A DNA stretch of 46,968 nt from Candidatus Peregrinibacteria bacterium (GCA_016186245.1 JACPLZ010000011.1:1-46968); one strand, 5' to 3'. Counted from the first letter of the stretch, positions 1-28,248 are shown. Numbers and translations are program-made. The notes: generated by a model not told the origin, from the letters alone.

Positions 1-104
1 TGTCATCCAACCGTGTCATCCAACCGTGTCATCCAACCGTGTCATCCAACCGTGTCATCCAACCGTGTCATCCAACCGTGTCATCCAACCGTGTCATCCA
101 ACCA
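1..104. repeat. 13-bp tandem repeat TGTCATCCAACCG, 8 copies, running off the left window edge
   Basis: Units start at 1, 14, 27, 40, 53, 66, 79 and 92. Seven are identical and the last ends in A instead of G. The core TGTCATCC is the reverse complement of the GGATGACA core of the array at 27916-28248. Confidence 0.95.
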
Positions 105-131
105 TGTCATCCCGAACTTGTTTCGGGATCT
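105..131. repeat. Hairpin module TGTC-ATCCCGAA-CTTGT-TTCGGGAT-CTC, same family as the modules at 28012 and 28178
   Basis: Perfect 8-bp stem (109-116 pairs with 122-129) with the 5-nt loop CTTGT. It sits directly 3' of the minus-strand stop codon at 133-135. Flanks TGTC and CTCT match the 28012 and 28178 copies. Confidence 0.8.
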
Positions 132-132
132 C

Positions 133-423
133 TCATCCCAAATGTTTCCAAAAGCACTCTTGGCAGTAAATAACAAAAGGACTCTCCGCCCTGTATGTGC
201 TGATTATTTCTTTCCGGCATTTATCGCAGGTCCTTTTAAAAAGTTTCCTTTCGTTCCTCAAGCTTAATCTCCTCTGTCTGCGACAATCGGGGCAAAGCTC
301 GGGATTTGGCAGCCCTTTTTTCTTATAAAATGCTTTCTCGGCCTGAATAATTAAAAATTCTTTTTCACATCCTTTGCACGTTACTTTTTCACTTTCGATC
401 GTTGGATTTGCAGTTGTATTCAT
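133..423 (-). CDS. Small zinc-ribbon protein (96 aa, 8 Cys in four CxxC pairs, including CxxC-x17-CxxC)
   Basis: Motifs CKGC...CPDCRRQRR...CDKC-(17 aa)-CQEC. It aligns by eye to both the N- and C-terminal modules of the 18902-20557 protein. It starts 17 nt downstream of the cysteine-rich ORF, in a different frame. Confidence 0.8.
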   Translation of the reverse strand: MNTTANPTIESEKVTCKGCEKEFLIIQAEKAFYKKKGLPNPELCPDCRRQRRLSLRNERKLFKRTCDKCRKEIISTYRAESPFVIYCQECFWKHLG

Positions 424-1429: not shown

Positions 1430-1885
1430 TTAGTTTTCCAGCACCTTCTTTGCCCATCCCTCCATCTCCGTCTCCTGCCTATCATTCTCATGGTCAAATC
1501 CAAAACAGTGCAGTAACGCATGCACAAACAAAACTTCCATTTCCTTACTTACCGTATGGCCTTTTTCTTTTGCCTGCTTTTTAGCAGTATCTATCGAAAT
1601 AAAAATATCACCCGCAATCACATCGCCTTTCTTTTTTTTGTATTCGGTTATTTCCAGATATGCAAACGATATCACGTCCGTGGGACTGTCTTTTTTTCTG
1701 TATTCGCGGTTCATTTCATGCATCGCTTTGTCATTTATAATTACCAGGTCTATCAGCCCGTTTCGCCCATACAGCCTGCCATCGACAAGTTTTTTAAGAA
1801 CTTTATAAAACTTTTTGATCCTCTTTTCAAAAAGAGTTTTATCAACTTTTATTTTTGTCTCGTTTGTAAAATCAAGTTTCAGCAT
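1430..1885 (-). CDS. ybeY: Endoribonuclease YbeY (rRNA maturation factor)
   Basis: 151 aa with the zinc motif HALLHCFGFDH (HxxxHxxGxxH) near the C-terminus. Size is typical for the family. Confidence 0.9.
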   Translation of the reverse strand: MLKLDFTNETKIKVDKTLFEKRIKKFYKVLKKLVDGRLYGRNGLIDLVIINDKAMHEMNREYRKKDSPTDVISFAYLEITEYKKKKGDVIAGDIFISIDTAKKQAKEKGHTVSKEMEVLFVHALLHCFGFDHENDRQETEMEGWAKKVLEN

Positions 1886-18366: not shown

Positions 18367-18909
18367 ATGACCGAGTGTTTTCGAATTTACGATTCCAATG
18401 GAAAACCGCAATCTACGTTAAAACCGCGTAATCAGGTACATGCGGATGGCGACTGGCATCGTGCCGTGGAAACATGGATTCTTAATTCAAAAAATGAATT
18501 GCTGATCCAAAAACGCGCCTCCGGTAAAGATTCCTTTCCCGACAAATGGGACGCCTCCTGCGCCGGACACATTGATGGGGATGAGGAAAGCATAAATACC
18601 GCCATCCGCGAGCTCAAAGAAGAACTTGGCCTCGAGATTAACGCAAGCGAGTTGCAATATCTTTTTGAAACCCGTGAAACAAATGTCACCAATAACGGGA
18701 GATTCATTGATAACGAAATCAAAGACATCTATTTGCTGGAACAAGACATTGATATAAATGATCTGAATCTTCAGGCTGAAGAAGTATCCACGGTACGATT
18801 TATCCATTTTCAAGACCTGGAAAAAATGATACAAGAAAACAGCGGTGATTTTGTCCCGCATAAAAATACTTACGCCGGATTATTTGCGTTTATCCGCCAA
18901 CATGCATAA
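18367..18909 (+). CDS. NUDIX hydrolase
   Basis: Nudix box GHIDGDEESINTAIRELKEELGL (Gx5Ex7REUxEExGU). Length 180 aa. Confidence 0.85.
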   Translation: MTECFRIYDSNGKPQSTLKPRNQVHADGDWHRAVETWILNSKNELLIQKRASGKDSFPDKWDASCAGHIDGDEESINTAIRELKEELGLEINASELQYLFETRETNVTNNGRFIDNEIKDIYLLEQDIDINDLNLQAEEVSTVRFIHFQDLEKMIQENSGDFVPHKNTYAGLFAFIRQHA

Positions 18910-20557
18910 AAACTGCCGGAACTGTCTGCAAAAATTCTCCATCTCCCAAAAGGATTTGGATTTCTATAAAAAACTCAATATCACCGGGCCAACTTTTTGC
19001 CCTGATTGCCGCCAACAAAGGCGTCTTATGTGGCGAAATGAACGCACGCTCTATAGGCGCAAATGCGATGGTACCGGCAAGGAAATTATTTCCGTATATT
19101 CTGCCGACAAGCCTTTTCCTGTATATGAAAATGAATACTGGTATTCCGATAAATGGGACGCTCTCGACCACGGACGCGATTTCGATTTTAGCAGGCCGTT
19201 CTTTGAGCAATTTTCCGAATTGATGAATGTGGTGCCTCAATTAGCCCGTTCTGCGGTGCAAAACCTAAATTGTGATTTCACCAATCAGGTTGGCTGGTGT
19301 AAGAACTGCTACCTCATTTTTGAAGCTGATTTCAATGAAAATTGTTACTATTCAAATAACATTTATGAATCACGTTTTACGATGGACAGCCTTATGGTCG
19401 TAAATTGCGAACTTTGCCATGAATGCGTTGATTGTTACGACTGCTACAATCTTAAATTTTCCCAGAATTGTAAAAATTGCTCCGATTCCTGGTTCCTAAA
19501 AAGCTGTATTGGCTGCCATAATTGCTATGGCTGTATAAATCTGCGCAACAAAGAATATTATTTTCTGAATGAAAAATATTCCAAGGATGAATATGAAAAA
19601 AAGATCGCGGCCTTAAATTTGAGCACCACAGAACAACTGGAAAAAGCCCGCCTGAATTTTTTGGAGTACTGCAAAAAATTTCCCCACAAATACATGGAAG
19701 GCAATCAAAACGAAGATTGCACCGGAAATTACATGTCCAATAATCAGCGTTGTTATGACTGTTTCGACATCAACAATTGTCAGGATTGCAGATATATTTT
19801 CAATTCCCGATATATGAAAGACTGCTGCGATGTTACTGTTTTTGGCTCCCGCGAGGGAGCCGAACTTTGCTATGAAGTGCATGAAACCGGCGCTGCCACC
19901 CGAAATATCATCGGCAGCGATCAGATATGGAGCGACTGCTACGATATTTTTTATTCCAAACTTTGTCTATTTAACAGTCATCATCTTTTTGGATGCGCGG
20001 GACTGAAAAAACAGAGTTACTGCATCTTCAACAAAAAATATTCACCGGAGAAATATGAAGAATTAAAAAACAAGATAGTAGATCATATGAAAAAAACCGG
20101 CGAATGGGGAGAATTTTTTCCGGCTACAATATGTCCTTACGGCTACAACGAAACTGTGGCAAATGACTGGTTTCCTCTGACAAAAAAAGAAGCCAAAGAC
20201 AAAGGTTACAAATGGAAAGACGCCGATCCTAGAGAATACAAACCGCAGACATATAAAATTCCGGTAAAAATAGAGGAAGTTTCCGATGCAATTGTTGATG
20301 AAATTTTGGCCTGCGGAGAGTGTGGAAAAAATTATAAAGTAATTATGGAGGAACTAAAGCTATATCGCCGACACAAACTGCCCATCCCTCAAAAATGTCC
20401 TGATTGCCGCCATAAAACCCGCTTTAACTTAAGAAATAAGCGCAATCTTTGTCAAAGAAATTGCAGGAAATGCAACGCCGAAATTATTACCACTTTCACT
20501 CCAGACCGCCAGGAGCCGGTGTATTGTGAAAAGTGCTATTTACAGACGGTCAATTAA
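18902..20557 (+). CDS. Cysteine-rich protein flanked by zinc-ribbon modules (fused paralogue of 441-1418 plus 133-423)
   Basis: N-terminal module: CRNC...CPDCRQQRR. Core: CELCHECVDCYDC...NCKNC...CIGCHNCYGC, plus two N-x-KYS-x-[DE]-[EK]Y helices. C-terminal module: CGEC...CPDCRHKTR...CRKC-(17 aa)-CEKC. The ORF-track start at 18845 is GTG. The ATG at 18902 (MHKNCRNC) overlaps the Nudix stop by 8 nt. Confidence 0.85.
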   Translation: MHKNCRNCLQKFSISQKDLDFYKKLNITGPTFCPDCRQQRRLMWRNERTLYRRKCDGTGKEIISVYSADKPFPVYENEYWYSDKWDALDHGRDFDFSRPFFEQFSELMNVVPQLARSAVQNLNCDFTNQVGWCKNCYLIFEADFNENCYYSNNIYESRFTMDSLMVVNCELCHECVDCYDCYNLKFSQNCKNCSDSWFLKSCIGCHNCYGCINLRNKEYYFLNEKYSKDEYEKKIAALNLSTTEQLEKARLNFLEYCKKFPHKYMEGNQNEDCTGNYMSNNQRCYDCFDINNCQDCRYIFNSRYMKDCCDVTVFGSREGAELCYEVHETGAATRNIIGSDQIWSDCYDIFYSKLCLFNSHHLFGCAGLKKQSYCIFNKKYSPEKYEELKNKIVDHMKKTGEWGEFFPATICPYGYNETVANDWFPLTKKEAKDKGYKWKDADPREYKPQTYKIPVKIEEVSDAIVDEILACGECGKNYKVIMEELKLYRRHKLPIPQKCPDCRHKTRFNLRNKRNLCQRNCRKCNAEIITTFTPDRQEPVYCEKCYLQTVN

Positions 20558-27915: not shown

Positions 27916-28248
27916 ATCCTGAAACAAGTTCAGGATGACATTTTTTGTGTCATGCCGGTTCAGGATGACATTTTTTGTGTCATGCCGGTTCAGGATGACA
28001 TTTTTTGTGTCATGCCGAACTTGTTTCGGCATCTCTTGAGGTTGATCGCTACGATAGATCCTGAAACAAGTTCAGGATGACACGATTAGAGTTCAGAATG
28101 ACACGATTAGAGTTCAGAATGACACGATTAGAGTTCAGGATGACACGATTAAAGTTCAGGATGACATTTTTTGTGTCATGCCGAACTTGTTTCGGCATCT
28201 CTTGAGGTTGATTGCTCCGATAGATCCTGAAACAAGTTCAGGATGACA
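27916..28248. repeat. Composite hairpin and tandem-repeat array built on the core GGATGACA
   Basis: Hairpin H1 (ATCCTGAA-ACAAG-TTCAGGAT) at 27916, 28058 and 28224. Three 30-bp units at 27927-28016. Hairpin H3 (ATGCCGAA-CTTGT-TTCGGCAT) at 28012 and 28178. Four 21-bp units at 28083-28166. A 94-bp segment is duplicated (27989-28082 and 28155-28248, 2 mismatches). Confidence 0.95.

Follow-up and report, generated by a model that had tools for sequence, protein, structure and literature searches.

A fused gene of Candidatus Peregrinibacteria encoding a member of a large unnamed protein family with zinc-finger ends and a predicted cysteine-lined beta-solenoid core

The DNA considered here is a stretch of 46,968 nucleotides from Candidatus Peregrinibacteria bacterium (GCA_016186245.1 JACPLZ010000011.1:1-46968), referred to at its full length as the window, which carries at 18902-20557 on the plus strand a gene, here called F, whose frame is open throughout and encodes 551 amino acids plus stop (ORF call, translation). 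The product of F is soluble and cytoplasmic and belongs to a very large, as yet unnamed family of accessory proteins, in which zinc-finger modules at both termini enclose a duplicated cysteine-rich core (translation, BLASTP). This core is predicted to form two beta-solenoids with coils of 12 residues, the cysteines of which appear to act as individually replaceable packing residues and not as metal ligands. The statements on fold and family are made with high confidence, and the explanation as a whole, including the binding function proposed below, is held with moderate confidence.

Architecture of the fused gene

An earlier note on this DNA had taken F for the fused counterpart of a split pair of genes at 133-1418, and the assignment of both to one family was borne out by BLASTP (E 4e-57 to 2e-20). 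The core of F is 35% identical over 321 residues to a 338-aa ORF at 441-1457 (E 4e-57), and the 96-aa protein encoded at 133-423 matches both ends of F, the N-terminal module with 50% identity (E 7e-24) and the C-terminal one with 38% (E 2e-20). The motifs that the note had listed are all present in F, i.e., C5-x2-C8, C33PDC36R, a degenerate second ribbon and an intact C521RKC-x17-CEKC545. Likewise, the cytoplasmic location was upheld, with neither a signal peptide nor a membrane segment in the protein (Kyte-Doolittle maximum 0.88 in a 19-residue window). Cysteine makes up 43 of the 551 residues (7.8% by translation). As the full-length homologues begin with MxKxC, the ATG at 18902 was taken as the start of F, a longer frame being possible from a GTG at 18845.

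More than 6,154 homologues of F were found in a collection of 5.8 billion proteins, labelled "hypothetical" or "zinc-ribbon domain containing", the best of them being 72% identical across the full length. With the core alone as query, 2,958 clusters at 50% identity were retrieved, including 1,131 below 1e-30. A tree of the paralogues pairs F with a 1:1 orthologue from a complete Peribacteria chromosome (SH-aLRT 100); old paralogues are conserved as such 1:1 orthologues, with further expansion in some lineages. With 25 of its 50 inner branches open, the tree has poor resolution, and it was used only for this orthologue and for the interleaving of phyla.

Each terminus of F is a homologous basic module of two zinc-finger-type units, a treble clef of the zf_Tbcl type and a CxxC-x17-CxxC unit, comprising altogether three intact Cys4 sites and a degenerate one, with at least one intact unit per end. 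For the analysis of the cysteines, an alignment of 735 family proteins to the profile was reduced to 569 sequences by thinning at 70% identity. The N-terminal treble-clef finger (18902-19036; C5, C8, C33 and C36, with the basic helix RQQRRLMWRNER) was modelled by AlphaFold 2 (AF2) with a predicted local distance difference test (pLDDT) of 85-90, and the presence of C8 and C36 covaries family-wide (phi 0.94). It is followed by the degenerate second ribbon (19058-19147; C55DGTGKEIISVYSADKPFPVYENEYW80), which aligns with C66-x2-C69-x17-C87-x2-C90 of the 96-aa protein and has kept C55, with T58, E76 and Y79 where Cys would be expected. The loss of three Cys described in the earlier note was therefore seen again; nevertheless, it is not peculiar to F, since the full set of four Cys in this ribbon is found in only 17.5% of 496 non-redundant family members (observed 0.175 vs 0.005 expected under independence), the three positions being present or absent together (phi 0.98-1.0). 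At the other end, the ligands of the C-terminal zf_Tbcl-type finger (20297-20437; C471, C474, C499 and C502, again with a basic helix) covary with phi values of 0.74-0.98 (0.98 for 474-502), and all four Cys occur in 56.5% of the family vs 22% if independent (0.565 vs 0.222). The last finger (20438-20554), consisting of C521RKC524, 17 residues and C542EKC545, retains its four Cys in 94.7% of the family.

With 22.9 bits for zf_Tbcl_2 (PF23477; cut-off 27) and 17.6 bits for TIGR04272 (cut-off 36), this last finger stays below the curated cut-offs and is a related, sub-threshold variant of these families; its LIM-like match (E 0.03) was all that the single sequence or the profile retrieved from the PDB. 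Residues 13-52 of the 96-aa protein match Pfam zf_Tbcl (PF13451) with 38.5 bits at a gathering cut-off of 24, and no hmmscan report against PF13451 was obtained for the N- and C-terminal zf_Tbcl modules of F. The end modules of F are of the same kind as zf_Tbcl, zf_Tbcl_2 and TIGR04272, with the exact CxxC-x17-CxxC spacing and ligand Cys that covary as sets. However, these families are themselves uncharacterised, no paper was found under their domain names, they span only about 170 of the 551 residues of F, and one of the four units of F is degenerate. As the presence of Cys covaries within the ligand sets and the tetrads far exceed independence, the end modules behave, in their pattern of substitution, as true metal sites. 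The family medians of the net charge are +2 and +6 for the two ends and -5 for each solenoid, the ends of F itself reaching +7 and +8.

The part between the modules begins with a conserved cap or linker (WYSDKWDA..GRDFDFSRPFFEQF..VPQLA; 19148-19270; pLDDT 93-97), the invariant or near-invariant columns of which are D83, W85, G91, D95, F96, F100, F101, Q103, F104, L107, P112 and N123. It leads into the first predicted beta-solenoid (19271-19546) of about eight 12-residue coils, in which every third residue points inward, followed by a cap hairpin (YYFLNEKYSKDEY), whose residue N223 is invariant in the family, and a helical insert (together 19547-19696; helices at 228-237 and 243-257 in the model). 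The second solenoid (19697-20026) has fewer Cys and shows the register of every third residue over positions 281-326. Since the two halves of the core align with each other and the motif of the cap hairpin recurs after the second solenoid (second BLASTP alignment between the halves), the core is an internal duplication. The subsequent post-solenoid region (helix ..HMKKTGEWGEFFP..YNET.A..FP; 20027-20191; pLDDT 91-97) is the most conserved segment among the paralogues and has the lowest family-wide entropy (1.75 bits), with H395, T399, E401, G403, F405, P407, Y415, N416, E417 and T418 near-invariant.

The AF2 model of F, built from an alignment of 85 sequences, reached a pLDDT of 80.5 and a predicted template modelling score (pTM) of 0.84, and that of the core-only paralogue at 441-1418, from an independent alignment of 80 sequences, 79.9 and 0.79, respectively. 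Both models are confident for the termini, the caps and the second half of the core, which forms long strands with a pLDDT of 88-96 in the core-only protein, and the DSSP strands of the Cys-rich coils are short, with a 12-residue period. Searches of both models against the PDB with Foldseek gave weak beta-helix matches to LpxD, LpxA, GlmU, gamma-carbonic anhydrase and a phage tailspike (E >= 0.04, TM <= 0.2), which point to a solenoid-like model with no relative. None of the matches was below E 0.01, and the weak left-handed beta-helix ones were not taken as homology. These hexapeptide enzymes (LpxA, LpxD, GlmU, gamma-carbonic anhydrase) are the only, very weak Foldseek neighbours of the solenoid-like core, but F has no hexapeptide match in Pfam, its coil counts 12 and not 18 residues, and no catalytic motif is conserved. 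Against BFVD, the model of F retrieved zinc-ribbon fragments only, none of them below E 0.01.

The core of F (residues ~90-445) had no match in Pfam, NCBIfam, PADLOC or the sequences of the PDB, either as a single sequence or as a profile of 85 sequences, and nothing appeared in Pfam, NCBIfam, PADLOC and PHROGs at E <= 1 except chance-level matches and phrog_15341 (unknown function), which is matched by the core-only paralogue with E 3.4e-10. A characterised domain family accounting for the whole architecture, which would have refuted the earlier note, was not found in Pfam, NCBIfam, PADLOC, the PDB (sequence and profile) or Foldseek. Moreover, no literature was found on Cys-rich zinc-ribbon families in Peregrinibacteria or Gracilibacteria. 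The family is thus one without a name, a Pfam model of its core, a solved relative or a paper that could be found.

Cysteines of the core

The core contains 8 to 38 Cys per protein (family median 25), and the earlier note had proposed to check whether its C-x2-C runs form a repetitive, metal-stapled solenoid. In solenoid 1, every Cys-bearing column from 124 to 220 falls into a single register of three, and the Cys frequency shows autocorrelation maxima at lag 3 (0.65) and lag 12 (0.62); the corresponding values in solenoid 2 are 0.53 and 0.47. Inward positions hold 46% Cys, 20% Ser and 8% Leu, followed by Val, Ile, Asn, Ala and Thr, with His, Asp and Glu outside the ten commonest residues, and outward positions of the solenoids hold Tyr, Asn, Asp, Phe and Glu. 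The Cys of the core are substituted one by one with Ser, Leu, Val, Ile, Ala or Thr, whereas those of the ribbons, which serve as an internal positive control for covariation in the same proteins, are retained or lost as whole sets (phi 0.94-1.0 within ligand sets). For pairs of core Cys, phi does not exceed 0.48; its mean is +0.13 at a separation of 12, where residues stack on the next coil, and -0.13 at a separation of 6, i.e., across the coil, with -0.53 for the pair 193/199. Likewise, the all-Cys state of the core tetrads 202/205/208/211 (observed 0.64, expected 0.61) and 172/175/178/181 (0.33 and 0.27) is close to what independence predicts. Because of these single replacements and independence-level tetrads, unlike the ribbon sets, the core is regarded as lined with Cys and not stapled by metal. 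Its cysteines would, on the evidence of the alignment, be individually replaceable packing residues, and neither metal staples nor obligate disulfide pairs; the metal-stapled solenoid is contradicted by this pattern.

The closest likeness to such a core is offered by TmAFP, the antifreeze protein of Tenebrio molitor (PDB 1EZG), which is built from the 12-residue repeat TCTxSxxCxxAx and in which every third residue (Cys, Ser, Ala) fills a very narrow interior. The core of the family shares the 12-residue period and a similar inward composition. Nevertheless, F has neither a sequence nor a Foldseek match to TmAFP, it is cytoplasmic and lacks a signal peptide, Thr-x-Thr surrounds only 0.07% of the inward positions, and the Cys of the family do not form conserved i/i+6 pairs. 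The resemblance is accordingly compared at the level of fold type, not of membership, and is probably convergent. To our knowledge, a Cys-lined 12-residue beta-helix is otherwise known only from disulfide-bonded insect antifreeze proteins; the core predicted here would be such a helix in the reducing cytoplasm, capped by zinc fingers. Metallothionein-like and other metal-cluster proteins differ from the family in that its core tetrads stand at the independence expectation and are not kept or lost as sets.

Distribution, linked genes and possible function

The genome under study (0.92 Mb, 87% complete) contains nine loci of the family, i.e., seven intact fused copies, a split one and a broken one, which are 36-42% identical to one another. 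The two copies counted in the earlier note are hence correct for the window, but not for the genome. Five other genomes gave 13, 23, 18, 3 and 25 matches. Of 301 genomes sampled evenly across the phylum Patescibacteria, 16 contained the family; no match was obtained in a 99%-complete genome of the same taxonomic family, nor in one of the same order. The second phylum sampled was that of a 5.1-Mb Bdellovibrionota assembly, with the family in 28 of 124 genomes and up to 41 candidate stretches per genome. The members from Bdellovibrionota are 46-52% identical to patescibacterial ones and interleaved with them in the poorly resolved tree. The family is, accordingly, patchy, multi-copy and common to Patescibacteria and Bdellovibrionota. 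It can account for as much as ~5% of a 0.9-Mb genome, given 25 matched stretches with lengths of up to ~1.7 kb, and organisms under strong genome reduction retain it. Relatives were absent from the plasmid collection, phage records held a ribbon fragment only, and IMG/VR gave a single partial match; a reading as mobile cargo was rejected on these grounds. Of the earlier suggestion of a conserved role rather than a mobile accessory gene, only the narrow statement that the family is not cargo of mobile elements stands, as 16 of 301 genomes and many copies per genome do not fit a conserved role.

The gene context was surveyed in 80 related loci of other genomes, in 52 of which family genes are arranged co-directionally, two to eight per locus. 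A TrmB-like gene of ~250 aa occurs in about 30 of these loci and is placed divergently and directly upstream of a family gene 23 times. The encoded regulator is a full-length homologue of TrmBL2 (PDB 5BOX, E 3e-12; profile positions 4-249 vs chain residues 7-262). TrmBL2 of the Thermococcales (PDB 5BOX/5BPI/5BPD) is a TrmB-like DNA-binding protein without sugar sensing. The divergent regulator aligns with it over the full length; unlike TrmBL2, it is bacterial, stands one-to-one with family genes at ~20% identity between pairs, and adjoins neither copy in the window. Bdellovibrionota also possess the cassette of regulator and family gene, with 49% identity between their regulator and one from Patescibacteria; most patescibacterial regulators share only ~20% identity with each other.

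In about 15 of the 80 loci, the downstream end of the array is occupied by a gene for an ATPase of ~750 aa, which matches the DUF87/HerA, T4SS-DNA_transf, TrwB_AAD_bind, TraG-D_C, TraD and CedD models as well as TrwB in the PDB. This linked ATPase has no membrane segment, whereas the generic patescibacterial form possesses an N-terminal membrane anchor. The generic VirD4-like form was detected in 299 of the 301 sampled genomes of the phylum, and the membrane-anchored gene is close to a phylum-wide core gene; this agrees with the published count of 5,713 VirD4 homologues in Patescibacteria, only 148 of which lie near virB4 (PMC12102498). A generic VirD4-like search was for this reason uninformative as a test of co-occurrence, and it is the soluble subtype alone that follows the family. 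In the patescibacterial sample, the 13 best full-length matches of the ATPase (47-76% identical) are all located in family-positive genomes, ten of them within 1-7 kb of a family gene, and five family-negative genomes gave no real match. Similarly, an ATPase of at least 50% identity is present in 13 Bdellovibrionota genomes, all of which are family-positive; in at least four of them, the ATPase gene adjoins a family gene. Linkage together with co-occurrence, as expected of a client or adaptor, was accordingly found in relatives of two phyla and not in the present genome, whose two VirD4-like genes (contigs C5:585-3275 and C16:1199-3679) are of the membrane-anchored generic form. A soluble VirD4-like ATPase at L018:6861-9104 matches phrog_5156 (unknown function) over most of its length with E 1.7e-66, and the matches of the ATPase in PADLOC are weak (mad8, 1e-11; HerA).

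The type IV coupling proteins (VirD4/TrwB/TraD) offer a parallel to this arrangement, as the linked ATPase matches their models and is situated downstream of arrays of diverse paralogues, in the manner of a selector with its clients. In contrast to them, the linked ATPase is soluble, neither a relaxase nor a known adaptor is present, and no channel genes were seen in the flanks of the related loci. The conservation that is specific to orthologue groups is concentrated in the solenoids (1.0-1.1 bits vs 0.4-0.6 at the ends), whereas the post-solenoid region and the end modules are the segments most conserved across paralogues. As the solenoid surfaces are conserved within orthologue groups and differ between paralogues, the solenoids probably recognise different targets. 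The paralogues may thus be binding proteins that form a set: through their constant basic ends and the conserved post-solenoid region they would dock to a common partner (a nucleic acid, the hexameric ATPase, or both), and the acidic surfaces of the solenoids would recognise targets specific to each paralogue. The proteins would serve as clients or adaptors of the soluble VirD4-like ATPase, with each gene under its own TrmBL2-like repressor; this adaptor mechanism is put forward tentatively. In the present genome, F would be separated from regulator and ATPase and is probably read through from the Nudix gene upstream. A bolder version, in which the family and the ATPase form an undescribed cytoplasmic machine, namely a hexameric translocase that draws on a library of beta-helix adaptors with zinc-finger caps, each with a TrmBL2-like repressor, and exchanged between Patescibacteria and Bdellovibrionota, is doubtful. 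If true, the machine would explain what a part of the orphan coupling-protein homologues of Patescibacteria act on, for which exaptation has been raised as a possibility (PMC12102498); in any case, the link to the ATPase provides a testable handle on these homologues.

Several observations weigh against this account. Function and partner are read from gene context, and in the present genome, which is 87% complete, neither the linked soluble ATPase subtype nor a TrmB-like gene adjoining a family copy was found, so that its nine copies may work without the ATPase. At least 40 family-negative genomes in the second phylum carry more distant soluble ATPases (40-44% identity), the count of 13 of 13 was obtained with thresholds set after viewing the data, and related genomes in these counts are not independent samples. 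Concerning the fold, the most Cys-rich coils reach a pLDDT of only ~60 in both models, and the coils 172/175/178/181 and 202/205/208/211 are Cys-rich in most members, where metal binding is possible.

The latter coils, with four inward Cys each, would suit an alternative in which the CxxC runs bind a column of zinc, iron-sulfur or copper and the protein acts as a metal buffer, store or chaperone, as would the 43 Cys of F, the core median of 25, and a distant core-only relative (L128:2680-4957) directly downstream of the genes for a Fur-family regulator and a ZIP metal permease. This is, however, the only metal-related context seen, once among more than 80 loci, and the single replacements of core Cys, among which His, Asp and Glu are not common, the lack of the all-or-none covariation that the ribbon control displays, the variable number of Cys per protein and the nine to forty-plus diverged paralogues per genome, more than a store needs, render a metal-handling function improbable. 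Even less can be said for a housekeeping factor of RNA or nucleotide metabolism that acts with the upstream YbeY and Nudix proteins, which we consider very improbable. Its attraction lies in the tight spacing, as there is an 8-nt overlap between the start of F and the Nudix stop and a spacer of 11 nt after ybeY, and in basic zinc-ribbon modules that resemble nucleic-acid binders. Still, the family occurs in 16 of 301 genomes of the phylum and was not detected in the 99%-complete genome of the same taxonomic family, a Nudix gene adjoins a family gene in none of the 80 related loci, ybeY and the core gene have a TrmB-like gene between them in a close relative (L127), and other copies follow purD, split pdxS from pdxT, or adjoin MazF, ParE and AbiE-like modules. 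The coupling to housekeeping genes that the earlier note had emphasized is hence a local accident, and for annotation the lesson is that overlap with Nudix or ybeY is uninformative on function here.

Two further explanations make use of the ATPase. The proteins could be type IV secretion cargo, selected by the VirD4-like ATPase via their basic termini and delivered into a host or prey. Many organisms in both phyla are host- or prey-dependent, in two phyla the gene adjoins the ATPase and co-occurs with it, and the family has been expanded into large arrays. Delivery is nevertheless unlikely, as the linked ATPase is not anchored in the membrane, the paralogues are old and have conserved 1:1 orthologues at 50-72% identity, without the signature of fast-evolving effectors, tightly folded zinc proteins would presumably be poor substrates of a channel, and nine copies are kept here with no linked ATPase detected. 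In addition, only 148 of the 5,713 VirD4 homologues of Patescibacteria have virB4 nearby, and the epibiotic growth of an epibiont did not depend on the homologue that was tested in it (PMC12102498). A defence or conflict system, in which arrays of paralogues sense invading elements and are coupled to a HerA/FtsK-type ATPase, would agree with the arrays, the frequent position of family genes beside toxin-antitoxin modules, the weak PADLOC matches of the ATPase and its strong one to the phage family phrog_5156. On the other side, the family protein itself has no match in PADLOC, effector domains such as a nuclease or NADase are absent from the arrays, the orthologues are deep and conserved, and plasmid and phage collections are essentially devoid of the family, which makes a role in defence quite improbable. 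The preferred explanation thus remains that of a set of binding proteins with constant ends and variable solenoids.

Split paralogue, further copies and neighbouring features

Upstream of F, the window shows the order comM, a 122-bp palindrome, a Nudix hydrolase gene (18367-18909, plus strand; PF00293, E 1.9e-18) and F, the Nudix stop and the start of F overlapping by 8 nt (ATGCATAA, sequence read). The Nudix gene is a local neighbour of F and not a conserved partner. In a related locus (L037:4387-7644), comM is directly followed by a family gene with no intervening Nudix gene.

The split paralogue is encoded on the minus strand. Its core-only gene (441-1418; 325 aa, two solenoids, no ribbons) probably starts at the ATG at 1418, 11 nt past the stop of ybeY, and belongs to a conserved subfamily of ~320 aa with 394 homologues. 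The 96-aa two-finger protein (133-423), composed of a zf_Tbcl and a CxxC-x17-CxxC unit, represents the detached end module. Upstream of the pair lies ybeY (1430-1885, minus strand; PF02130, E 3.8e-34), a neighbour by synteny only. In L127, a 73%-identical orthologue of the split pair, the core-only gene is likewise followed by a two-finger equivalent (92 aa), and the TrmB-like gene that intervenes between ybeY and the core gene is on the opposite strand.

The copies in this genome adjoin or follow Nudix, ybeY, purD, MutS, MazF, ParE, AbiE-like modules and HNH-like genes, with no neighbour in common between copies, and the family inserts into unrelated operons. An intact paralogue is located between pdxS and pdxT (L005:1183-2859; contig C33:7879-9555), two genes that are normally adjacent, its longest frame overlapping the end of pdxS. 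The broken ninth copy (L016:296-1749; contig C65:6562-8015) consists of ORFs of 296 and 166 aa; the middle of its core is gone, an in-frame TAG interrupts the part that matches the N-terminal module, and it adjoins an AbiE-like two-gene module.

Two kinds of repeats were observed besides. The peptide MVRQAHHD(K/N/I) appears at the ORF starts of several unrelated ORFs in this genome (contigs C5, C32, C55 and C68), which suggests a dispersed DNA repeat translated into ORF calls. At the contig start (window 1-140), a 13-bp tandem repeat, TGTCATCCAACCG, is present in 8.6 copies with 98% matches and is followed by a TGTC-tagged hairpin, ATCCCGAA-CTTG-TTTCGGGAT, which adjoins the stop of the 96-aa gene and is similar to the tagged hairpin repeats at 27916-28248. 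This hairpin may be the reason why the assembly ends at this point.

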